Program-made: the position numbers and the translations under genes | Virus genome (UHGV): UHGV-0117658 | Strand: one strand, 5' to 3' | From: a virus | Length of the DNA: 15,978 nt | The notes under the pieces: generated by a model | What the model saw: the letters and a program-made list of their open reading frames with translations, nothing else | Database searches by the model: none | What the model was told of the DNA's origin: nothing | Shown here: piece after piece, positions 1 to 15,978 of the stretch | How the letters are laid out: every line of letters begins with the position of its first letter | Position numbering within the stretch: the first letter of the stretch is position 1

Positions 1-995
1 TTGATGGCTTACGTGGAATTTGTGCAGCAATGGTTGCTGTATTCCATCTTTACTGGAGAGCCGGAGGAGAATCAGATATATACTGGTCTCTTGAGTACAT
101 TACACTCAGCAATGTAAAACGCGCCATATATCTAACAGGAGAGTTATCTGTTGGGGTCTTTTTTATGCTGTCTGCTTTTTTATTTTTCAAAAAGGCACTA
201 GCGGACTCCTTCGATGTAAAAAGCTTTGCAATTTCACGATTCATGCGAATTTACCCACCTGTAGTTGTTCTTTTATTTATAATATATATTGCAACATTTA
301 TCATGAATCCGGATAACCATACTCCAGTATCGCAATGGTTTATATCTTCATTACCATTTATATTCAATCCGCCTGGCGCTAACATCAATGGTGTATCGCT
401 CCAGATTGCCACATCTGGTGTGTTCTGGACGTTAGTCTGGGAATTACGCCTATACCTTGCAATTCCATTTTTATATCTGATAATGAAAAACATCAAATAT
501 AAAGAAGCATTTGTTATTTTTTTAATGGGATGTGTTTTATTATTCAAGTATTTTATAAACAATGAACAACACCTGAGTTATATAATGTATTTCCTTGCAG
601 GATTTCTTGTCGCTACAATCAAGAGCAACAAGCGCCCATCAGATATAATCTGCGCTTTATTATTATTCGCAGCCATATATTTTACTCGACATGCTTACAA
701 CACTACAACTCCGCTTTATATGTTTATTGTTTTCTACACAATAAAGTGCGGATGTGATTACTTTGGCTTACTTACATCCCTGCCTGTAACTATGCTGGGA
801 ACCTGCAGTTTCTCCCTTTATTTAGTTCATGGGATAACTCAAACAGTATCTAAACATTATTTATATAGTGCAGGAAACTATGTTTGGCAGATTTGTGCAA
901 TTATTGCGGCAGGTATCATTGCGCCGGTTATGTACAAATATGTCGAAAGTCGCAGCATCATACATAAGCGTCCTCAACTTCAGATTGCAAAGTAG
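1..995 (+). CDS. Acyltransferase family 3 integral membrane protein (putative polysaccharide O-acetyltransferase), 5'-partial; the reading frame is open from the window edge
   Basis: ORF 30..995 has no in-frame stop back to position 3; the upstream translation ...DGLRGICAAMVAVFH matches the N-terminal motif of acyltransferase-3 family enzymes (OafA/Oac type). Product is very hydrophobic with multiple predicted TM segments. Visibly AT-rich relative to the phage structural genes. Confidence 0.7.
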   Translation, partial: DGLRGICAAMVAVFHLYWRAGGESDIYWSLEYITLSNVKRAIYLTGELSVGVFFMLSAFLFFKKALADSFDVKSFAISRFMRIYPPVVVLLFIIYIATFIMNPDNHTPVSQWFISSLPFIFNPPGANINGVSLQIATSGVFWTLVWELRLYLAIPFLYLIMKNIKYKEAFVIFLMGCVLLFKYFINNEQHLSYIMYFLAGFLVATIKSNKRPSDIICALLLFAAIYFTRHAYNTTTPLYMFIVFYTIKCGCDYFGLLTSLPVTMLGTCSFSLYLVHGITQTVSKHYLYSAGNYVWQICAIIAAGIIAPVMYKYVESRSIIHKRPQLQIAK

Positions 996-1022: not shown

Positions 1023-1090
1023 TATCCCACCACGCTGTTAAAATTTTGTTTCGTCTTACTTAGCATTTTTAAGTTGCCCATCGGAAAAAC

Positions 1091-1356
1091 GTCACAACCA
1101 TCACGCCCCACAAAAAAAAACCATTAACCATCTGATTATCATGAATAAATGTTGTGATGGTAAAACCATCACAAAACGTAACGTAAACCGTCACACCCTA
1201 TAAATTCAGCGAGTTATAAAACAGAGTTGTGATGTTTTAAGGCCGTCACACTGTGATGCTCTTGTGATGCTCTTGTGATGGTTTTCAATATATGAATTTA
1301 CTTATACATATCATATAGATAAATGATATTTTTTAAATCTGTGATGTTTGTGACGG
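1091..1356. repeat. Array of at least 10 copies of an octamer TGTGAYGG / CCRTCACA in both orientations, embedded in AT-rich DNA; includes a perfect 9-5-9 palindrome (1152..1174) and an 11-bp tandem repeat tgtgatgctct x2.7 (1253..1282); iteron-like
   Basis: Direct reading: gtcacaaccatcacg (1091-1105), ttgtgatggtaaaaccatcacaa (1152-1174), ccgtcacac (1188-1196), ttgtgatg (1227-1234), ccgtcacactgtgatgctcttgtgatgctcttgtgatgg (1243-1282), ctgtgatgtttgtgacgg (1339-1356). Convergent intergenic region with no ORF of 60 aa or more. Confidence 0.6.
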
Positions 1357-1486
1357 TTTTCCGATGCTCCCCCTAAATTTTTGAAAAAATTAGAAGTGGT
1401 CAGAAATCACCCTGATTTGTTGGTGGTTTTGTATATATCTCTGTTAGTGATTTGAGCATTGGTGCAGTACGTTAATGTAGGTATGG

Positions 1487-2419
1487 CTACAGCGGCACCG
1501 CTGAGTAAACAGGCGTCTGATTGTCCGGGTTTCCGTCTGCGTCAAGCAGCTGAACGTCCACGGCATAACGTGGCCGGAATGGATCGGCAAAATTACCACT
1601 TTTCACGGGTTCAGTATGTGCCACCACTCTGGCCATCTTTGGCAGATGAAGCCCGGAAGCCAGTTCCGGATAATGGCTCTCAATCTGTCGTTGTGTCGGT
1701 GTTTTCTGAAGGGGGCTGCCTGTGACGCGGTTCCGGGGTGTCCAGGTGATAGTCATCGTGTCATTTGTAAGATGGACTTTGGTGACCCGTTCACCGTTAA
1801 GCTCAACGCCGGGTCGTATCGTCTGGATCACCGGTAACGTTATGGTATTCCCGCCAGCAGCCCCCTGGCTGAACTCTGCCGGCACTTCGACCGGACGACC
1901 GGTAAACAGTGACTTTTCAGCACCGCCGACGTAAAGCGAACCATCAGGCAACTGGTACCAGATGTAATCCTGGATACTGAATGCCCTGCCCAGGTTGTTC
2001 AGCAACTGATAGCCGGTACCGTTATGGGTGAAATGGGGGATCGGAGTATCGCTGTAAGACACATCGGGTACACTGACACCGATCCCGCTGTTTTCCGTCA
2101 GCCAGCCGGCTACATCCCTTAATGTCGGGTGCTGAAATGAACATGGCCACATCCTTTCAAAAACACCGGCCAGCTCACGAATGAACAGACGCTGATAACC
2201 GTTTTCAGCTGGTTGTGAACGTTCAACATAACCGGTAAACCAGCGCAAAAGCAGGTCGGTATATCCCACATCCAGCCGCACCAGTTTCCCGGTATAATCA
2301 GTGGTTGTCTCTGCGGTAATAAATCCCCGACCGCAACTGTTAAGCTCCAGTACCAGGCTGGCATCAGCCAGATGCACTTCATCCGTTGAAAGGTAAAGAC
2401 GTTTAACTGGTTTCATCAT
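1487..2419 (-). CDS. Hypothetical protein (310 aa), third gene of a coupled three-gene operon; no family recognised
   Basis: Long ORF; start ATGATG overlaps the stop of the upstream gene (TAATG coupling at 2417-2421); codon composition like neighbouring phage genes; no Walker or nuclease motif seen. Confidence 0.6.
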   Translation of the reverse strand: MMKPVKRLYLSTDEVHLADASLVLELNSCGRGFITAETTTDYTGKLVRLDVGYTDLLLRWFTGYVERSQPAENGYQRLFIRELAGVFERMWPCSFQHPTLRDVAGWLTENSGIGVSVPDVSYSDTPIPHFTHNGTGYQLLNNLGRAFSIQDYIWYQLPDGSLYVGGAEKSLFTGRPVEVPAEFSQGAAGGNTITLPVIQTIRPGVELNGERVTKVHLTNDTMTITWTPRNRVTGSPLQKTPTQRQIESHYPELASGLHLPKMARVVAHTEPVKSGNFADPFRPRYAVDVQLLDADGNPDNQTPVYSAVPL

Positions 2420-3661: not shown

Positions 3662-4031
3662 TTCCAGGCACCTCCGGCCACACAATTTCCGGCGCATCTT
3701 CCGGTTGAATACGGTTCATTAAAACGCGGTATTTTTTCCATGCGGTAAGCAGCAGTGCTTCTTCTTCGGTCGCCATGTCTAAATCTACGGCATCCTGCAA
3801 TGTGGCAATGGCATCACTGGCCTGTTTAAGTAGTCTTTTCTTTTCTGCATCTGCCTCGCTGACTAATGCAGTTCGCATGGCCTCCGCATCATCCACCCAC
3901 GCCTTTCCATTCCATTTTTGCCAGGCATTAGCCGGGGCTGACGTGGTTGTCCCTTCCGGGTAAGCACCAGGCTCGGTGATTACCAGTTCATTACCGTTTG
4001 CGCGGTTGGCATCCAGCGCGGTAACAGCACA
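3651..4031 (-). pseudogene. Tail fibre assembly protein (Tfa/gpG family) C-terminal fragment with no upstream start; remnant of a tail-fibre module
   Basis: My own translation of this frame from 4031 downward gives ...ELVITEPGAYPEG...WQKWNGKAWV...[47 protein letters not shown], which closely parallels the lambda Tfa C-terminal half (QKWNGTAWV...[45 protein letters not shown], recalled from memory). The frame is closed by a stop just upstream of 4031 and lacks the Tfa N-terminal half. Confidence 0.6.
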
Positions 4032-4210
4032 TCACGCTTAAATTCCATTCGCTCAGCGCGGCTTTCAATCGCTGCAGCTGCGGCGACATCTTTCTCCAGC
4101 GCGACAATCTGAATATGCAGGCTGGTTTCCGTGTCCAGAGACTGCTGCTGTCGCAGTAACCGCTCCGCTTCAATTCGTGCGCTGTGGCGCTGTGCCGGTG
4201 ACAGTTGCAT
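3980..4210 (-). pseudogene. M: Terminase small (endonuclease) subunit gpM, N-terminal roughly 70 codons only, truncated by premature stop at the junction with the tfa fragment
   Basis: Sits immediately after the capsid gene N with a strong SD (agggggattta-ATG), as M does in P2. Begins MQLSPAQRH..., resembling the recalled P2 gpM N-terminus (MTSPAQRH...), but is 76 aa instead of about 247 aa; the downstream sequence switches frame into Tfa-like sequence. Confidence 0.5.
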
Positions 4211-8048: not shown

Positions 8049-9064
8049 AAAAACGGAAATACAGGGAACGCCGCACCGCCAGCAAGCCGCGCCATATGAG
8101 CCTTATTACCCTGGGTAAACCGGAACCCATTCTGACGACCGGCACAAACTACACAGACGTCTGGTATGACAATGAAGCGGAACACTGGACGCTCCCGATT
8201 GACCGGCTGGCGCTGGCGCAACTGGTGAACCTGAACGCGCAGCACGGCGGTGTGCTGTATGCCCGTCGCAATATGGTGACGGCAAACTATAAAGACGGCG
8301 GACTGACGCATGAACAGCTTGGTGCAGCCGTGTTCGACTGGCTGACCTTCGGTGATGTGGCCATTCTGAAAGTGCGTAACGGCTGGGGGGATGTGGTGGC
8401 ACTGTACCCGCTGCCGGCACTCTATACCCGCCAGCGTAAGACCGGGGAGTTTGTGGTACTGCAGCAGGGTGAACCGATGATTTATCCGCCTGAAGATATT
8501 ATTTTTCTCAGGCAGTACGATCCGCAACAGGCGATTTATGGTCTGCCGGATTATATCAGCGGTATCCATTCTGCCCTGCTTAACGGTGAGGCAACAATTT
8601 TTCGTCGGCGTTACTACCATAACGGCGGACACACAGGTGGCATGATCTACTGTAACGACCCAAATATGACTGATGAAGTGGAAGAAGAAATTATTCAGAA
8701 GCTGGAGCAGTCAAAGGGGATCGGGAACTTCAGCACCATGTTTGTGAACATCCCCAAAGGCGATCCGGACGGCATCAAATTTATCCCGATTGGGGATATC
8801 AGCGCCAAAGATGAGTTTCAGAACATCAAGAGCATCAGCGCCCAGGACGTACTGACCGCGCATCGATTCCCGGCAGGACTGGCGGGGATTATCCCGACGA
8901 ACGGCGCAGTAATGGGAGATGTTGAGAAAGCGTCCAAAACCTACCGCAAAGCAGAAATTTTGCCCATTCAGCGCATGTTTACCGCCGCAGTGGAACAGGA
9001 AAGTGATGTACCGCCCCACCTGTACCTTAATTTCCTGAAAGACAGTGAGCTGGAAGGTGATTAA
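8045..9064 (+). CDS. Q: Portal protein, gpQ-like, 339 aa
   Basis: Translationally coupled to P; size and order (P then Q) match the P2 packaging module; internal motifs (LFRR.YY.NG.H.G, DGIK.IP) resemble P2 gpQ as recalled. Confidence 0.85.
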   Translation: MKKRKYRERRTASKPRHMSLITLGKPEPILTTGTNYTDVWYDNEAEHWTLPIDRLALAQLVNLNAQHGGVLYARRNMVTANYKDGGLTHEQLGAAVFDWLTFGDVAILKVRNGWGDVVALYPLPALYTRQRKTGEFVVLQQGEPMIYPPEDIIFLRQYDPQQAIYGLPDYISGIHSALLNGEATIFRRRYYHNGGHTGGMIYCNDPNMTDEVEEEIIQKLEQSKGIGNFSTMFVNIPKGDPDGIKFIPIGDISAKDEFQNIKSISAQDVLTAHRFPAGLAGIIPTNGAVMGDVEKASKTYRKAEILPIQRMFTAAVEQESDVPPHLYLNFLKDSELEGD

Positions 9065-9117
9065 TGTTCGCAAAAAGGCTAAAATATCATCGTTTTCCAA
9101 CTTCCGGAGCGATGGAT

Positions 9118-9393
9118 ATGCGGGTAATGAAGGTTTACTGTCCGGTATGTGAGGCAAGGGCTGTTATCAAAAAAACAGCCCGAAAACACAAGGAACTGTC
9201 GGATTTATATTGCGCGTGTACCGATGTTGAATGTGGTCACACTTTTGTGATGAATATGACATTCTCACATACCATCAGCCCCAGCGCCAAATCCAGCGAT
9301 GCGTTGATCGCCACTATCTGTAACAGCCTTGATATCCAGCAAAAGCAGCTGATGTTAAAGTTTCTGAGTCAGGACGGCACTGCTGCCGCATAG
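9118..9393 (+). CDS. ogr: Ogr/Delta-family zinc-finger late transcription activator, about 91 aa with a C-terminal extension
   Basis: CPVC-x19-YCACTDVECGHTFV matches the Ogr/Delta signature (C-x2-C ... C-x-C-x4-C-G-H-T-F). Start chosen at the ATG at 9118 with GGAG 9 nt upstream; the track ORF 9064..9393 is in the same frame. Confidence 0.7.
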   Translation: MRVMKVYCPVCEARAVIKKTARKHKELSDLYCACTDVECGHTFVMNMTFSHTISPSAKSSDALIATICNSLDIQQKQLMLKFLSQDGTAAA

Positions 9394-9398
9394 AAAAA

Positions 9399-9426
9399 AG
9401 CACCGCTACCGGTGCTTTTATTTTCT
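9399..9426 (+). terminator. Rho-independent terminator (stem agcaccg/cggtgct, loop ctac, then ttttatttt) immediately after the ogr-like gene; A-run upstream makes it potentially bidirectional
   Basis: Read directly from sequence. Confidence 0.6.
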
Positions 9427-9532
9427 GAGATGTAACAGATTCCCATCTATCAACGTCGATGAATGACCAAGTGATTAATAGTCCCCCCCTCCTAAACATG
9501 ATATTATCTTTCCAAATTTTGGGAGGCATCTT

Positions 9533-10252
9533 ATGTTAATAGTCTCAGTTCTTAAATGTAGTAAAGAGTTTACCCCTAAACACGCCCAATGGCTTCATCG
9601 TCAGTTCAAAGATATTCCATCTATATGTTTAACCGATGCAGATAATATTCCTGGAGTTAACACAACCCCTTTGCTTTATAACTGGCCGGGATGGTGGTCT
9701 AAAATTGAACTATTTAATCCTAATCACCCAGTCCTTGGAGACCAAGATTTACTCTATTTTGACGTAGATGTTGTGGTCACGGGAGATATTCATATTTTCG
9801 AAGGTGCGAAGAAATTTACAATGCTTCGGGAGTTTAACCATGCCTCAAGAGTAAACTCATCAATAATGATGATTCCGGCGTCGATTAAAAAGACGATTTG
9901 GGAACAATTCATTATTGATCCTGAGAAAATTATGCGCAATTGTCAGACTGAAGACAAATGGGGTGATCAGGGATTTCTCGGTAGCATCATAAAACCAGCC
10001 CTATGGCAGGATATCATTCCTGGCTCAATTGTTAGTTATAAATGTGACATCGCCACCCCCTCGATGATTGGCTTCAATGCAAATTTAGCCTCTGAGGCTG
10101 CGACAGGGAAAGTCCCTGATAATGTGGCGGTTGTTTGCTTTCATGGCAGTCCACGCCCCTGGCGTACTGGTTTTGATTGGGTTCCTTCGTTTTCCCTGCG
10201 GGATACTCTGTACGGTAAATTAAAGAACTTTAAAATAAGAATGAAGCAATAA
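9533..10252 (+). CDS. Glycosyltransferase family 8-like (LgtC/RfaJ-type) nucleotide-sugar transferase, 239 aa; AT-rich accessory gene
   Basis: DxD motif in LYFDVDVVV, WGDQGFL and CFHGSPRPW blocks parallel GT8 motifs (YLDIDVLV, QDQDILN, HYCGPAKPW in LgtC, recalled from memory). Strong SD gggagg 6 nt before the ATG. Clearly lower GC than the flanking phage genes. Confidence 0.6.
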   Translation: MLIVSVLKCSKEFTPKHAQWLHRQFKDIPSICLTDADNIPGVNTTPLLYNWPGWWSKIELFNPNHPVLGDQDLLYFDVDVVVTGDIHIFEGAKKFTMLREFNHASRVNSSIMMIPASIKKTIWEQFIIDPEKIMRNCQTEDKWGDQGFLGSIIKPALWQDIIPGSIVSYKCDIATPSMIGFNANLASEAATGKVPDNVAVVCFHGSPRPWRTGFDWVPSFSLRDTLYGKLKNFKIRMKQ

Positions 10253-10320
10253 AGATAACGCCCCTATTGCTTCAATGTTCGCTCCTTCCCCTAACAATAA
10301 AGTTAGGCACTAGTGAACCG

Positions 10321-12978
10321 TTACTTTTCCCGGCCAAATATCCAGCAGCGGAATGTTTCCGGCATCCGTTGCATATCCCCTTTACCACGATTATGGCGCT
10401 CACTTACCGCGCTGCGCGTGGTGCTTTGTCTGATAAACCGGCGCTCATTGCCGTTTTTAAGCAGCTTTTTAATTTCCGTTAACGTGAACGGAATACGCTG
10501 CCGGTGTGCTGCGGCGACCTCTTCCATGTGATTGAAATTAACCGCGATTTCATTTTCATCTGATGAATGATTGATGCCATAAGGTGCCAGTTCATCCAAG
10601 TAATCAAACAGCTCCCAGAACTCCTGCACCAGAGGATGATCCTTTTTAAGTGCCTGACAACGTTCAACGGCCAGCGCGGTGATGGCTTCACGCGTTTTTT
10701 CTATACGTTCAACCGGCACCGGTACAACAAGTGCAAGCGCCTCCAGCAAGCCCACAAGCTGCGCGTGATTCTTTGCAATACGGATATGGCGAATACTGCT
10801 ATTAGACTCCAGCTCATTCCTAGCTCGCTCGTACCCCCTGCCGAACGTCTGCATGATTTCTTTTTCGCGCATGGTGGCCAGTAATGTGAATCCGGATACC
10901 TGGCTAACGGGGAGTTGTTCAAGTCGTTCTGCAGCGTGGCGCGTCTGAATGGACTGGCCGCGCTTGTCGGTATAGATGTGGATGATACGCTCCAGAAACG
11001 CCTTGCTGCCGTCTGTGTCGGCATTTTGCGCTATCACAATACTTCCCCTGAACGGCGGCTCATACGTCTCGTTATTGTTCGATTTGATACCCACGGCGCG
11101 GGAGGCACGACCGTTATACAGTGATTTCAGCTCGTCCCAGTCAAAAGCGCGTTGCTTGGCGTTATCGGTAGTACGGTCGCCCTCAATCAGCACAACCGGC
11201 AGATTACCGACCTGGGCGAAGTTACGGCCACGCGCGGCGGCGGTAGATTTAGATGGGTCAAACCCTTCGTATTCCTCACGGCCGGCGAGCTTCCAGAGAA
11301 ATTCTATCAGCGTGGATTTACCTGTCCCCGGCTCGCCCACGATTTCCAGAAACGGAAATGACTTGTCACGCTCGCGGATTTGTTCGGCAAACAGCGACCC
11401 CAGCCAGAACGCCAGCGCCACATACCCTTTTTCACCAAATGCCGTCCAGATATCGTCTACCCAACCCGTAGTAAACTCGTTCAGCTTCGGATTCAGATCC
11501 AGCGCCGGCGTGAGGCTCAGGCTCTTAACGCTGGCACTGTTGATTTCGAAGTAATCCTCGTCGTTCATCTCATACAGCCGGCCATCGCAAACGGCCACGC
11601 GGTTAAACAACCAGGCGGCATAATCCTTGTTATAGCCGATGAAATTCTGCGTCTTTACCTCTTTGATTTCAGGGAGGCGCATCTGGATGAACTTATCCAG
11701 CTGTTTGGTGCTGCCTGTGTACACCGCCCCTTTGGCGATGTGCAGCAGACGCTTTTTGAACTCGGCGGAGCTGGTGAGCTGATTAGCCGTGAAAGTATCT
11801 TTCACGGCTGGCCGGTTAGGCATACTGACTTTCACGTAATACCAGGACTCGTCCGTAGGTTCAGACCGCTGAAAGTAAAGCGGCGTCAGCCAGCAGTTAG
11901 CTATTTCGGTCACGCCGCCTGACTCTTTAACCGCCCGTTCTTTGGCCTCCCACTCCATCACCACTTCGGTACCGGTATTGGTGATGCGCTCATAGGCTCG
12001 CATATACCTGTCCAGATCCAGCTCAAACCAGTACATGCGGGAGTTATGCTCAAAGTAGAACGAGTGCCACTCGTTATGCTGATGCATGAGCAGCGCTTTC
12101 TCAGTCGGGCTTTTTGCCAGAAGGAGATCGCCATAGTAGCGATAATTTTTAATGTCCGACTTACTGAACCGGTTACGTAACAACAGGTCATTCCAGTCCA
12201 GCGATGCCGATGATTTCACCGGCTGCGCGGCACGAGTTTTCCATCCTGCAGCATCACTACGGGCAGCGAACGCCAGTGTGTGCTTTGTGCCGGCTTTATC
12301 GCCGTCAAACGCCCATACAAGACGTGGACGTGGTTTTTCACCCAGTTCTTTGGCCAGCGTATCCAGTGCGGCCAGCGGATAGTTGTTACTGCTCAGTGTG
12401 GCAACTGCAGGTAACCCTGCCTGGCACAGACTCAGCGCGTTGAAGATTCCCTCAGTGATCCAGATTTCGTTCACTTCCTGCAGGTTGATAAAGGGAGGAA
12501 CCCACCAGTGACCGACATAGCTTCCCCTGATGTTGGCTTTCTGCTTACCGAAGCGCTGCGGCTGGTCAATGATGCGCTCCCATGTTGCACCGCATGACAG
12601 CGAAAATCTGACCGTTGCCGACCCCATGCCATCTTTCACGAATGCACCCTGGGTAAAACAGCCTTTTAATGGCTCAGTCTCCAGCCCTCTGGCCTCGCGC
12701 AGATACGCCTCAGCTACTGCATGGGGGTTATCTTCTGTGGTCTGGTAACGTTTTGACCAGTCTTCAAAGATATCCGGATACAGCTCTTTCACGACAATCT
12801 GATGTGCGCAGTTATTTTCACGGCCACATTTCAGAATCCAGGGCTTTTCTATGCTGGTAAATAATTCGCGCTTACGACAGGCAGGGCAAACGCCCTGCTG
12901 CAAATACTTATCCCGCTCTTTAAATTCAAAGTCCCGAACAAGACGGCGCACAACGTCCTGTTGTATCGTTTCGTTCAT
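10321..12978 (-). CDS. Replicative primase-helicase, P4-alpha-like architecture (N-terminal Cys4 zinc ribbon, TOPRIM primase domain, C-terminal P-loop NTPase), about 885 aa
   Basis: CPACRK...CGRENNCAH zinc ribbon; TOPRIM-like ITEGIFNALSL and FDGDKAG motifs; Walker A GEPGTGKST. The track ORF begins at a TTG (13014); the first ATG (MNETIQQ) at 12978 is used here. Confidence 0.8.
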   Translation of the reverse strand: MNETIQQDVVRRLVRDFEFKERDKYLQQGVCPACRKRELFTSIEKPWILKCGRENNCAHQIVVKELYPDIFEDWSKRYQTTEDNPHAVAEAYLREARGLETEPLKGCFTQGAFVKDGMGSATVRFSLSCGATWERIIDQPQRFGKQKANIRGSYVGHWWVPPFINLQEVNEIWITEGIFNALSLCQAGLPAVATLSSNNYPLAALDTLAKELGEKPRPRLVWAFDGDKAGTKHTLAFAARSDAAGWKTRAAQPVKSSASLDWNDLLLRNRFSKSDIKNYRYYGDLLLAKSPTEKALLMHQHNEWHSFYFEHNSRMYWFELDLDRYMRAYERITNTGTEVVMEWEAKERAVKESGGVTEIANCWLTPLYFQRSEPTDESWYYVKVSMPNRPAVKDTFTANQLTSSAEFKKRLLHIAKGAVYTGSTKQLDKFIQMRLPEIKEVKTQNFIGYNKDYAAWLFNRVAVCDGRLYEMNDEDYFEINSASVKSLSLTPALDLNPKLNEFTTGWVDDIWTAFGEKGYVALAFWLGSLFAEQIRERDKSFPFLEIVGEPGTGKSTLIEFLWKLAGREEYEGFDPSKSTAAARGRNFAQVGNLPVVLIEGDRTTDNAKQRAFDWDELKSLYNGRASRAVGIKSNNNETYEPPFRGSIVIAQNADTDGSKAFLERIIHIYTDKRGQSIQTRHAAERLEQLPVSQVSGFTLLATMREKEIMQTFGRGYERARNELESNSSIRHIRIAKNHAQLVGLLEALALVVPVPVERIEKTREAITALAVERCQALKKDHPLVQEFWELFDYLDELAPYGINHSSDENEIAVNFNHMEEVAAAHRQRIPFTLTEIKKLLKNGNERRFIRQSTTRSAVSERHNRGKGDMQRMPETFRCWIFGREK

Positions 12979-13017
12979 AAATAATCCAGATGTGAAATAA
13001 TGGGTAAAAGGCAAAAA

Positions 13018-13236
13018 CTATATTCTGTACTGCTTGTTATATCGCTCATGTGTCATTAGTTCCCAGCTTCTGCCCTTATCCTTACTCAGTAATCGCCAGC
13101 GATAAGAAACATGAACAGAGAAATAATGTTTTGGCTTAATAACCTGATATACCTTTTTGCCGTTGTAATATTCTGTCAGCACTGAAAATGCCTTGTGAAT
13201 GACACTTTCACTTGCATGAGAGGTCACTGTAAGCAT
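13018..13236 (-). CDS. Possible small basic protein (72 aa), start 2 nt after the exonuclease stop; uncertain
   Basis: ORF only; AT-rich; no SD recognised; occupies the otherwise 260-bp gap between the exonuclease and primase genes. Confidence 0.25.
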   Translation of the reverse strand: MLTVTSHASESVIHKAFSVLTEYYNGKKVYQVIKPKHYFSVHVSYRWRLLSKDKGRSWELMTHERYNKQYRI

Positions 13237-13238
13237 CG

Positions 13239-13808
13239 TTATTTCACACTGGCTATTTTTACAAGATACATCCAGACATAAGAAACAACTTTAGCCTGAT
13301 GAATGGCATCATATAAAGCGTGATGTTTAACACCATCAAACTTAATAATATTACGAACATTCAGCCCAAGTGTTTTTGACAGTTCAACAACCGTTCTTAC
13401 ATCACGGTCATTCCAGTAGTACCAAAGTGGATCGGCAAACCCGCATTTCTCTGATGCATTACGTAAAATAACATTGTCGAACGCTGCACTATTCCCCCAT
13501 ACCTGTACTTTAGATGGGTCAGAATGCTCAGTAATAAAAGCTTCCAGATTAGCTAACGTCAGAGGCAAGTCCAGACAATCGTCATTAAGCAGCTCGCTAC
13601 GCGCTTCGGCATCCTGACGCATCCACCATAATACGGTTTCTGACCCCATAGTGAGACCGTGGCCTACACAGCTGCCCAGGCTGACACGTTGATAAAACTG
13701 TTCACCCATTTCGCCAGTTTCAGGGTCAAAGAATACAGCACCGATAGAAGCAATCGCAGAAGTCGGTTTATTATCCATTGTTTCAAGGTCAATCATTAAA
13801 TGTTTCAT
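13239..13808 (-). CDS. DEDDh-type 3'-5' exonuclease (DnaQ-like fold), 189 aa
   Basis: N-terminal MIDLET motif (Exo I, D-x-E), a central ...FD... block and C-terminal H-x4-D (HHALYDA) are characteristic of the DnaQ/RNase T superfamily; SD aaggaaccgat-ATG. Confidence 0.75.
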   Translation of the reverse strand: MKHLMIDLETMDNKPTSAIASIGAVFFDPETGEMGEQFYQRVSLGSCVGHGLTMGSETVLWWMRQDAEARSELLNDDCLDLPLTLANLEAFITEHSDPSKVQVWGNSAAFDNVILRNASEKCGFADPLWYYWNDRDVRTVVELSKTLGLNVRNIIKFDGVKHHALYDAIHQAKVVSYVWMYLVKIASVK

Positions 13809-13817
13809 ATCGGTTCC

Positions 13818-14153
13818 TTAACGTTGGGAAGCTGCAACAGATTTAAGATGCGAGTTATTACTTTTTAACGCTGTGGTAGCCAGCGACATAAGACCGGAAA
13901 TGTTATTTTCAGTTGGTATATTTCCGCCAAATACCATAAGCGTGATTTTGTGCAGTTCTTCAAAATCATCACTATCATTATTAAAGCGAGCAGTGGAGGT
14001 TATACCCTCAAGGCATTTTGCAAGCTGAATGTTTAATTCCATTAACTGCAAGCCATCGCTATGTACAGAGAATGTTTCTTTATCAATAGTTTTTGCCTGA
14101 GCGTGATAGTTTTGCAACAGACTACGAATCAGCGTGGCATATTTAGTCTTCAT
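13818..14153 (-). CDS. Hypothetical protein (about 111 aa from the ATG at 14153), AT-rich early-region gene
   Basis: ORF with GGGGA SD before the ATG at 14153 (the track's 14165 start is a TTG); no recognised domain. Confidence 0.5.
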   Translation of the reverse strand: MKTKYATLIRSLLQNYHAQAKTIDKETFSVHSDGLQLMELNIQLAKCLEGITSTARFNNDSDDFEELHKITLMVFGGNIPTENNISGLMSLATTALKSNNSHLKSVAASQR

Positions 14154-14179
14154 GATAATCCCCAATAATATTTAGTTTA

Positions 14180-14461
14180 CTAACGAGCACTTTTATCTTT
14201 CGTGAATAAACGGTTCTTCCAGTCATGCCATTCAGGCGGGGCAATTTGAGCCAAATGAATGGCATAAGCATCCCATTCCCCCCGATGGATATAGATTTCC
14301 CCACCTTTTTTTGATGGATTTAGAGGGTCTTTCATGCGGATTACCGGCAGTTTTCCAGCCGTGGCCATTTTGCGAATTGCAGCAGGCGTTTTGCCTATAT
14401 ATTCGGCAAAAAGCTCAGGGGTCACCAACTCTGAAAGCGCCTTTTCTGCTGGTTCCTTCAT
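14180..14461 (-). CDS. cox: Cox-like/excisionase-family small DNA-binding protein (93 aa), divergent from the repressor
   Basis: Position and orientation identical to P2 cox relative to C and int; size 93 aa (P2 Cox 91 aa); ...GKLPVIRMKDP... resembles the Cox/Xis-type wing region as recalled. Confidence 0.65.
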   Translation of the reverse strand: MKEPAEKALSELVTPELFAEYIGKTPAAIRKMATAGKLPVIRMKDPLNPSKKGGEIYIHRGEWDAYAIHLAQIAPPEWHDWKNRLFTKDKSAR

Positions 14462-14569
14462 CTGTGGTATCCTTCGTTAGTTTGGGTTCCTAGGGCGCTT
14501 TAAGTCGTTCTAGGGTTCTTTTGTCAAGGTTCTTTTGTAAGAACCAATAATAGTTACGATACAAGAACC
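14462..14569. promoter_or_regulatory. Immunity switch region between cox and C: divergent promoters with multiple GGTTCT half-sites (direct and inverted) and two CTAGGG motifs
   Basis: Direct reading: gggttcc (14484), gttctaggg (14507), ggttcttttgt x2 (14514, 14529; 15-bp period), inverted aagaacc x2 (14539, 14563); ctaggg at 14490 and 14510. Confidence 0.55.
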
Positions 14570-14869
14570 ATGTCAAGAAATTATGCGGAGAAACTCCGGC
14601 AGATCCGGAAAGCTGAAGGGTTAACTCAAAAAGATTTTTCAGAGCTTACTGGGGTAGCTCTTGGAACAATAAAAAAGTACGAAACTGGCCATCAGCCAGC
14701 TCGTGCAGAAGTCTTAGAAAGTGTTATAGAGGTACATATGTTTGAAAAATATACACTCTGGTTAATGACAGATAAGACGGCACCAATTGCGGGGCAGGTG
14801 TCCCCGTCTCTCTCCCCTGATGGGCAAGACAACATAACATCATCCCGTTCCACCCGGAAAATTGGCTAA
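14570..14869 (+). CDS. C: P2 C-type immunity repressor (HTH), 99 aa
   Basis: Exactly 99 aa like P2 C; HTH LTQKDFSELTGVALGTIKKYETG; the FEKYTLWLMTDKTAPIAGQVSP block parallels P2 C (FTKYTLWFMTNQIAPESGQIAP, recalled from memory). Confidence 0.8.
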   Translation: MSRNYAEKLRQIRKAEGLTQKDFSELTGVALGTIKKYETGHQPARAEVLESVIEVHMFEKYTLWLMTDKTAPIAGQVSPSLSPDGQDNITSSRSTRKIG

Positions 14870-14935
14870 ACATCTGGTTTTTCTATGCGTTAGCGCAAAA
14901 TTTACATAATGATTCATACATCGGAGGGCTTCGCT

Positions 14936-15928
14936 ATGTCGATTAAGAAGCTTGATGATGGTCGTTTTGAAGTGGACGTTAGACCGCGCGGAACCTCAGG
15001 AAGAAGGATTCGACGCAAATTTGACAGAAAGGCGGAAGCACAGGCATACGAGCGGTATGTACTGACAAACTTTCACGATAAAGAATGGCAGGATAAACCC
15101 GCAGACAGGAGGCTTGTATCCGAGTTAATTTCTTTATGGTGGAGCTACCATGGAAAGAATCACAACTATGGTGACTCATATAAAAAGCGTTTGGAAAAAA
15201 TCAACCGAGAAATGGCGGAACCCAGAGTGTACGAGCTTACCCGCAACTTTCTGATGAAATATCGTGCAGAACGACTTCATAGTGGAGTATCTGCTGGCAC
15301 GGTAAACAGGGATTTCTGTTCCATGTCCAGCATGTTCAGTTTGCTGATAGATATGGAAGAATTTCATCACGAAAACCCGTTTCGCGCCGTGAAGAAGTTA
15401 CGTCTGGAAAACACAGAAATGTCATTTCTGTCCGAAGAAGAGATCCACCATTTGCTGAATGCCCTTACAGGGGATGATCGCAGAGTTGTCGTTCTTTGCC
15501 TGAATACAGGAGCACGATGGGGTGAAGCCAGTAATCTTAAAGCTGAAAACGTGATAAGTAACCGTGTGACCTTTGTTAAGACCAAAACCGGCCCAGCTCG
15601 TACTGTTCCGATATCGAAGGAAATCGCGGACTACATCCTTACACGCAAATCGGGGAAATTGTTCGATACCAACTATGAGCGAGTTCGCGATGTTCTTCGT
15701 AAGATTAAGCCAGACTTGCCGAAAGGTCAGGCACTGCATGTTTTACGCCATACCTTCGCAACACATTTCATGATCAACGGCGGGAATATCATCACGCTAC
15801 AGCGTATTTTGGGTCATACAACAATCGAGCAAACAATGACATATGCTCACTTCGCCCCAGATTATCTGACTGATGCCATACGATTTAACCCTATGCGTGG
15901 GAGTGTCCACATAATGTCCACCGACTAG
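14936..15928 (+). CDS. int: P2-family tyrosine integrase, about 330 aa
   Basis: Begins MSIKKLDDGRFEVDVRP after a GGAGG SD (the track ORF starts 9 codons upstream); catalytic-region blocks CLNTGARWGEA, NRVTFVKTKT, HVLRHTFATHFMINGG, ITLQRILGHT.IEQTM.YAHFAP match P2 Int as recalled. Confidence 0.9.
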   Translation: MSIKKLDDGRFEVDVRPRGTSGRRIRRKFDRKAEAQAYERYVLTNFHDKEWQDKPADRRLVSELISLWWSYHGKNHNYGDSYKKRLEKINREMAEPRVYELTRNFLMKYRAERLHSGVSAGTVNRDFCSMSSMFSLLIDMEEFHHENPFRAVKKLRLENTEMSFLSEEEIHHLLNALTGDDRRVVVLCLNTGARWGEASNLKAENVISNRVTFVKTKTGPARTVPISKEIADYILTRKSGKLFDTNYERVRDVLRKIKPDLPKGQALHVLRHTFATHFMINGGNIITLQRILGHTTIEQTMTYAHFAPDYLTDAIRFNPMRGSVHIMSTD

Positions 15929-15950
15929 GGCATTTTAGGGTGTATTAGGG
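15926..15950 (+). repeat. Three TAGGG direct repeats at a 10-bp period overlapping the int stop codon; candidate arm-type/Cox-type protein-binding sites of the attachment region
   Basis: Direct reading: cTAGGGcatttTAGGGtgtatTAGGGtta; the same pentamer occurs twice in the cox-C switch region. Confidence 0.45.
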
Positions 15951-15978
15951 TTAATAAGGCGCTCATAACATATTGATT

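Follow-up and report, generated by a model that had tools for sequence, protein, structure and literature searches.

A primase-helicase of predicted Cch-like fold as the probable replication initiator of an Evevirus-type P2-like phage, with a candidate iteron origin

In phage P2, replication is of the rolling-circle type and begins at a nick that the HUH (H-x-H-hydrophobic) enzyme gpA (Phage_GPA, HWHMML motif) makes within its own gene. The P4 alpha protein unites a zinc ribbon, a TOPRIM primase, a P-loop domain of the hexameric-helicase type and an origin-binding C terminus in a single polypeptide, and Cch of staphylococcal cassette chromosome mec (SCCmec) and SaPIbov1 Rep of the pathogenicity islands (SaPIs) of Staphylococcus aureus are 'MCM-like' self-loading initiator helicases without a fused TOPRIM primase. 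Among P2-like phages, a gene of Ralstonia phage RSY1 has already been described as a DnaG-type primase standing at the P2 replication-gene position (PMC5694545), and an earlier classification noted that, apart from ogr and int, phiCTX and RSA1 have little in common with the early region of P2 (PMC2771037). We found nothing relevant in the literature on Evevirus, on its phage ev239 or on a phiCTX origin. Here, we analyzed virus genome UHGV-0117658, a stretch of 15,978 nt (the whole of which we call the window) that holds a P2-like prophage with a gene for an 885-residue protein in its early operon (Table 1). The original prediction took this gene to be a primase-helicase of the P4 alpha type, exchanged into a P2-type backbone. 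Our findings indicate that initiation of replication in a temperate P2-like phage of the Evevirus type is the probable role of the gene product, in which a zinc ribbon and a DnaG-type TOPRIM primase are fused to a hexameric AAA+ helicase of the Cch/SaPIbov1 Rep type and replication would start by origin melting at iterons.

Domain content and helicase family of the window protein

The window protein is identical to RefSeq WP_032292416.1 ('toprim domain-containing protein'), which other E. coli genomes encode at the corresponding position, and matched the phrog_1139 ('DNA primase') profile over its full length (1240.9 bits; residues 3-884 on positions 2-890 of 895). Although a TTG at 13014 would allow a longer open reading frame (ORF), the ATG at 12978 is the start in homologues and in the RefSeq entry. 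In an alignment of 28 homologues (48-89% identity), C31, C34, C51 and C57 were invariant in all 28 sequences, and these four cysteines in a beta-rich N terminus fit a zinc ribbon. Toprim_3 (E 6e-11) and Toprim_2 (E 5e-10) both matched residues 172-268, where we observed the conserved Glu and the DxD acidic cluster that characterize a DnaG-type TOPRIM domain. Invariance across the 28 homologues extended to E176 and D225 of this domain, G553/K554 of Walker A, E599 and D601 of Walker B, N652 and R664. The TOPRIM and P-loop elements that had been proposed for this protein are thus borne out by its Toprim matches and Walker motifs, and its invariant cysteines are in keeping with the proposed zinc ribbon.

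Sequence searches of the PDB, whether by the protein or by the profile of its family, yielded weak matches to the DnaG TOPRIM domain only, so that the helicase half could be placed only by means of a predicted structure. The AlphaFold2 (AF2) model built from the 28-sequence alignment was confident (mean pLDDT 86), and its best structural matches were SCCmec Cch (5dgk; score 24.5 with 438 residues aligned, E 3e-16) and SaPIbov1 Rep (8tch; 19.4, E 7e-11). Lower scores were obtained for the DnaG RNA-polymerase domain (13.4, E 6e-06), SaPI5 PriRep (7ola; 12.2, E 1.7e-05), vaccinia D5 (8apl; 11.9, E not listed) and an MCM homologue (3f8t; 11.9, E not listed). The model reproduces the overall fold of Cch and SaPIbov1 Rep (N-terminal domain, AAA+ core and C-terminal domain) together with the conserved ATPase motifs of these proteins (Walker A, Walker B, sensor Asn and Arg), and neither D5 nor SaPI5 PriRep was the closest helicase fold. 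Among predicted viral structures, the best matches were TOPRIM proteins and proteins annotated 'DUF927 domain', and P4 alpha was not among the top 50. The SCCmec literature separates two helicase families, the first being that of Cch, which carries DUF927 and has SaPIbov1 Rep as a relative. As judged from the predicted structure, the window protein is a DnaG-type primase fused to a Cch/SaPIbov1-Rep-type (DUF927-fold) helicase, but it has only 12-13% sequence identity to Cch and SaPIbov1 Rep. We infer that residues ~677-885 form an origin-binding domain, the model for this being the winged helix in Cch and the SaPI Reps.

These findings bear directly on the proposed P4 alpha type. P4 alpha itself matched Zn_Ribbon_Prim (E 2e-18), Toprim_3, D5_N (E 5e-12), DUF5906 and Pox_D5 (E 4e-16) in Pfam, whereas the window protein passed the threshold for the Toprim models only among these families. 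We detected no match of the window protein to Zn_Ribbon_Prim or Pox_D5, D5_N was not matched even at E up to 1, and a DUF5906 P-loop match at residues 546-654 fell below threshold (22.8 bits against a cut-off of 27.6). Of the domains expected from the original prediction, TOPRIM was therefore recovered and D5_N was not. A true member of the P4-alpha/D5 family (Primase_Cterm, D5_N), acquired from a P4-like satellite or integrative element, would share the domain order of zinc ribbon, TOPRIM, P-loop helicase and C-terminal domain, which is identical in the two proteins. Such a member would also be in keeping with the weak DUF5906 match, which recurs below threshold in 23 of the 28 family members, with two short collinear BLASTP patches between the window protein and P4 alpha over TOPRIM and Walker A (E 0.004 and 0.002), with an hhalign match limited to the TOPRIM region (E 2.8e-4) and with the presence in both P4 and the window element of 8-bp iterons away from the gene. 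Nevertheless, similarity to P4 alpha in the helicase region is confined to roughly 60 residues around Walker A, and we consider membership in that family quite unlikely. Because the helicase half has the Cch/SaPIbov1 Rep fold in place of the D5_N/DUF5906/Pox_D5 helicase of P4 alpha, the label 'P4-alpha-like' is wrong at the family level and describes a resemblance in outline only. As an analogy, P4 alpha is likely a model for how the window protein acts.

Absence of gpA and gpB and distribution of the primase-helicase

P2 gpA and the window protein occupy the same early-operon position in P2-like genomes and presumably have the same role in starting phage DNA replication, but no similarity between them was detected. 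The window protein contained no HUH motif and no match to the Phage_GPA domain, and comparison with P2 gpA gave a best BLASTP E of 2.0 and an hhalign probability of 0.4%. Searching for a separate gpA-like gene by tblastn with P2 gpA gave nothing better than E 0.76 in the window, in its full-length prophage counterpart of strain NT1F10 or in phage ev239. We also detected no gpA or gpB homologue in the window, the NT1F10 prophage or phage ev239, nor in any of 80 related loci, which are the best 80 of at least 577 IMG/VR contigs encoding a homologue of the primase. These results confirm the earlier claim that the protein is not of the gpA type, since neither of the findings that would have refuted it, HUH motifs in the protein or a gpA-like gene elsewhere in the element, was made.

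The closest phage relative of the window protein is gp29 ('DNA primase') of Escherichia phage ESSI2_ev239 (NC_049392; Peduoviridae, Evevirus), with 95% amino acid and 87% nucleotide identity over the full length. Phage ev239 has the same gene order (int-C-cox-orf-exonuclease-primase) and the same iteron cluster as the window, but differs in the moron between primase and ogr and in that the ParE-like ORF is not annotated, and the window copy lies in a defective prophage. Other full-length homologues are encoded by phiCTX (orf37, 41%), RSY1 (46%), Stenotrophomonas phage Smp131 (40%) and Pseudomonas phages Dobby (41%) and phi3 (29%). Of these, phiCTX, RSY1, Smp131 and phi3 are P2-like phages with full-length homologues (29-47% amino acid identity) and without an annotated gpA homologue, and they differ from the window in the sequence and position of their iterons and in the regulatory genes around the primase. 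Six phages with taxonomy in their records (ev239, phiCTX, RSY1, Smp131, phi3 and P2) are Peduoviridae. More broadly, we found more than 2,188 homologue clusters in a large protein database, and P2-family structural genes were present in the available flanks of 61 of the 80 related loci, the other 19 being contigs of at most 14.5 kb.

Several Peduoviridae genera thus have the primase-helicase module as their usual replication system. This is an ordinary arrangement, and it is already known, since it is present in named phages (the genome records of ev239 and phiCTX; RSY1, PMC5694545). The gpA/gpB and phrog_1139 systems are alternative replication modules under similar virion genes, so that over evolutionary time the 'exchange' of the original prediction is a reasonable term; as a feature special to the window element it does not hold, because phiCTX and ev239 are alike in this respect. 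Recent module shuffling within the group is evident from two IMG/VR loci (L014 and L043) whose primases are 94% identical to that of the window, with integrase (94%) and cox (91%) also close in L014, and whose P2-family capsid (31% amino acid identity) and terminase (62-63%) are far more distant from those of the window.

We also considered that the protein is not an initiator and serves, for example, in anti-phage defence or exclusion, with the phage relying on host initiation. The gene adjoins a variable 'moron' position, and PADLOC gave weak TOPRIM-only matches to the DnaG-like domains of defence-associated reverse transcriptases (E 4e-7). However, the PADLOC matches were generic (TOPRIM and P-loop), those to reverse transcriptases covering the TOPRIM region alone, and the gene stands in the early operon at the P2 A position, is found in every member of several phage genera that lack another initiator and encodes a protein with the predicted fold of dedicated initiator helicases. 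A role in defence is therefore highly improbable, and replication initiation remains the function that we favor for this protein.

A candidate iteron origin and a model for initiation

Because SaPI Reps and P4 alpha recognize short iterons (PMC9371898), we searched both strands for clusters of 7-mers. The sole outstanding cluster in the window lies in noncoding DNA between an acyltransferase gene and a truncated baseplate gene and surrounds an AT-rich stretch (Table 1). Within these 269 bp we found 12 of the 39 near-matches to the 8-mer in the window (0.66 expected) and all six of its exact CC[A/G]TCACA matches. As in P4, the iterons are octamers in both orientations remote from the gene, whereas origins of the Cch/SaPIbov1 Rep type adjoin their genes. 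A repeat search over positions 9000-15978 detected no iterons adjoining the primase gene and only operator-like repeats in the C-cox spacer. From its sequence, the cluster at 1089-1357 is a candidate origin bound by the primase-helicase.

Every primase-bearing phage genome that we examined contained a noncoding iteron cluster, often directly downstream of the gene (Table 1). Clusters of at least six copies occurred in 14 of the 80 primase loci, and clusters of at least five in none of 80 gpA-type loci (1.2 Mb). Related primases were accompanied by a related iteron core (GT[C/T]ACA) regardless of its position in the genome, which ties the iterons to the primase and not to cos or int.

Table 1. 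Features of the window and iteron clusters of other genomes
Feature	Position	Strand	Details
Primase-helicase gene, 885 aa	10321..12978	-	ATG at 12978, stop included at 10321; phrog_1139
N-terminal zinc ribbon, ~aa 20-62	12793..12921	-	C31-x2-C34...C51-x5-C57; beta-strands 20-62 in AF2 model; approximate boundaries
TOPRIM core, aa 172-268, of DnaG-type RNA-polymerase domain	12175..12465	-	E176, D225, D227
Beta-rich domain, ~aa 306-500	11479..12063	-	From model secondary structure; N-terminal part of Cch-matching half; approximate boundaries
AAA+/P-loop helicase core, ~aa 506-675	10954..11463	-	Walker A GEPGTGKS 548-555, Walker B E599/D601, N652, R664
C-terminal helical and small alpha/beta domain, ~aa 677-885	10324..10950	-	
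Candidate replication origin	1089..1357	.	12 copies of 8-mer CC[A/G]TCACA, at most 1 mismatch, both orientations
AT-rich stretch, candidate unwinding element	1282..1339	.	58 bp, 13.8% GC, between iteron groups
Acyltransferase gene	30-995	+	Runs off window start; 37% GC
Baseplate gene, truncated	1487-2419	-	310 of about 544 profile positions
gpM (small terminase) gene, truncated	3980-4210	-	76 aa
Ogr_Delta (ogr)	9064-9393		Pfam
Low-GC gene between primase and ogr	9533-10252	+	phrog_1962 'glycosyltransferase'
Terminator-like hairpin	10242..10274	-	14 pairs; downstream of primase stop
ParE-like ORF, 72 aa	13018..13236	-	Directly upstream of primase, same operon; Pfam PF24732 E 8e-17
Rv2179c-like DEDDh 3'-5' exonuclease	13239..13808	-	Early operon; Pfam PF16473 E 1e-67
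Early-operon ORF, phrog_7058	13818..14165	-	Function not assigned
cox homologue	14180..14461	-	First early-operon gene; Pfam Phage_Cox E 8e-25
Early promoter candidate, in C-cox spacer	14514..14576	-	TTGACA-18-TATTAT (11/12), minus strand 14576-14547; with four AAGAACC/GGTTCTT repeats
C-like helix-turn-helix (HTH) repressor	14570-14869		Pfam
Integrase	14909-15928		Pfam
Iterons, ev239 and NT1F10 prophage	Between acyltransferase gene and tail genes		Same cluster as window
Iterons, phiCTX	35107-35377		AAGGTAAT, 8 copies; 'R3 repeats' of the record, between attP and cosR
Iterons, RSY1	15-287		AGGTAAT, 4 copies
Iterons, Smp131	33053-33324		AGGTAAC, 6 copies
Iterons, phi3	Directly downstream of primase gene		C[C/T]GGAACA, about 14 copies
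Iterons, IMG/VR L026-L032 (primase 52-56% identical)	200-1130 nt after primase stop		GTCACAA, CGTTACA, GGTTACA or CCTTACA, 8-10 copies
Iterons, IMG/VR L034-L038 (primase 50-51% identical)	~1.3 kb after primase stop, beyond int		GGTTACA or GGTCACA, 10-13 copies
Iterons, IMG/VR L073 (primase 45% identical)	~2.2 kb upstream of primase gene		CGTTACA, 7 copies
Iterons, P2			Nothing above shuffled background
Iterons, P4 (positive control)			Known ori and crr repeats recovered

The cluster at 1089-1357 may alternatively be a packaging region (cos-adjacent binding sites for terminase or integration host factor [IHF]) or a recombination region (Int arm sites). The origin would then be at another place and might, like that in P2 gene A, fall within the primase gene. 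The phiCTX cluster overlaps annotated IHF sites between attP and cosR, the RSY1 cluster lies near the cos core at 485-539 (PMC5694545), and the cluster follows int in L034-L038. In phi3, L026 and L029-L032, however, the cluster directly follows the primase gene, the portal gene, where detected, is several kilobases away and int is on the other side. Moreover, P2, which has a related terminase, has no such cluster, the GT[C/T]ACA core is kept by related primases at any position, and ev239 has a different repeat, GTCCACA, beside int that is a better candidate for Int arm sites. These observations make a packaging or recombination role doubtful, if credible enough to be weighed, and argue for the cluster as an origin bound by the primase-helicase. 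The GTCCACA cluster of ev239 (26742-26959; six copies in both orientations, immediately after the integrase gene) probably represents the arm-type Int sites of attP, and the region matching it falls beyond the right end of the window.

These findings suggest a model in which derepression would lead the early promoter beside cox to transcribe cox, the phrog_7058 ORF, the exonuclease, the ParE-like ORF and the primase-helicase. The C-terminal domain of the latter may then bind the CC[A/G]TCACA iterons at 1089-1357, and the adjacent stretch of 14% GC would melt. The helicase would load itself as a hexamer without a DnaB loader, which fits the lack of a gpB homologue in the window and the 80 related loci, and the TOPRIM domain would lay RNA primers for the host polymerase. 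Replication would thus start in theta mode from an opened origin, like that of P4 and the SaPIs, instead of from the gpA nick of P2.

Several observations weigh against this model or against parts of it. Pfam DUF927 did not match the window protein and reached only one of the 28 family members (E 0.043), so that the assignment to the Cch type rests on the predicted fold. The TOPRIM domain has N180 in place of the usual Asp, a position that is D in most relatives and A in P4 alpha. We found no report of binding, helicase or primase activity for any member of the family. The window iterons lie ~9 kb from the primase gene in the prophage and ~5.5 kb upstream of it in the circular form. The four-copy cluster of RSY1, the weakest among the primase phages, was no higher than shuffled controls (4-5), and the clusters of both phiCTX and RSY1 lie ~200 bp from cos, where they may have a packaging role. 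Finally, the gpA proteins of the 80 control loci are 97-100% identical to that of P2, and these loci are hence not independent.

Considering both sides of this evidence, we lean towards proteins of the phiCTX/ev239 type forming an uncharacterized class of phage initiators. Such proteins would join a DnaG-type primase to a self-loading helicase of the Cch/SaPI-Rep type, use iterons of the GT[C/T]ACA type and support P4/SaPI-like origin melting, instead of the rolling-circle replication of P2, in a large part of the Peduoviridae, with a mobile origin that stands beside the gene or beside attP/cos. As a discovery this carries little weight, since public records already contain the gene, the genus and the pairing of a P2-like virion with a primase of the DnaG type. 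What our analysis adds is a sharper annotation, through the assignment of a Cch-like fold, and a testable candidate for an iteron origin. If the proposal is true, 'P2-like' phages would offer a natural pair, nick-initiated and origin-melting, for the study of replication-module swaps under the same virion genes.

Early operon, prophage decay and neighboring genes

The primase gene is the last in an early operon that probably ends at the terminator-like hairpin. The candidate early promoter is probably Pe, and the AAGAACC/GGTTCTT repeats around it, two per orientation, are probably operators for the C repressor of the immunity switch. The ParE-like ORF is encoded in 16 of the 80 related loci, directly upstream of the primase gene in close relatives, and no antitoxin partner was evident. 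We ruled it out as a conserved partner of the primase, since the small ORFs at this place in phiCTX, RSY1 and Smp131 lack such a domain. Because the exonuclease is only 41-66% identical in loci with primases that are 60-94% identical, lower than its neighbors, the sequence comparison suggests that it has been exchanged independently.

Pfam matches in the window to Phage_Cox, a C-like HTH protein, integrase, Ogr_Delta, portal, gpP-type terminase, GPO scaffold and P2-family capsid agree with the int-C-cox and Q-P/O-N layout that the original prediction had described as P2-like. The element accordingly has the backbone features of the Peduoviridae (int-C-cox switch, Ogr activator and divergent Q-P / O-N-M head genes), and full-length versions of this backbone with tail and lysis genes are found in the NT1F10 prophage and ev239.

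The window DNA is that of E. coli. Of the complete E. coli genome records, 62 match it, 22 with an identity of at least 99%; the prophages examined among these 22 sit between raiA and pheL. The counterpart in NT1F10 (L002), which lies between raiA and pheL/pheA, is a prophage complete at 29 kb, and two segments of it are absent from the window. The first deletion (L002 3744-5044; 1.3 kb, junction at window 1489/1490) removed part of the baseplate gene and noncoding DNA. The second (L002 7555-19000; 11.4 kb, junction at ~3998) took out everything from the remainder of gpM to the tail-fibre gene, together with part of the tail-fibre assembly gene. Due to these deletions, the baseplate gene and gpM are truncated, none of the genes that lie between gpM and the tail-fibre assembly gene remains, and the tail and lysis genes are lost. 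The raiA-pheL site of strain PK5 carries a remnant with another deletion, and the early region and head genes are kept in both remnants. The window prophage is thus defective and decaying, with its early region and head genes still intact. The presence of head genes without tail genes had at first made us suspect a capsid-forming satellite similar to capsid-forming phage-inducible chromosomal islands (cfPICIs). This was ruled out by the derivation of the window by deletion from a complete 29-kb prophage, by the truncated gpM and by the differently deleted PK5 remnant. The cos cores of P2, phiCTX and RSY1 gave no convincing match in the window, ev239 or L002.

At the far end of the prophage, the low-GC acyltransferase gene encodes a membrane protein of the Acyl_transf_3 family. 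Because its ev239 counterpart is annotated as an O-acetyltransferase, it is a candidate lysogenic-conversion gene. The low-GC gene between primase and ogr had no match in Pfam, NCBIfam or PADLOC, and ev239 has two small unrelated ORFs at its position. The primase-ogr interval therefore appears to be a variable cargo slot ('moron'), like the old/tin region of P2.

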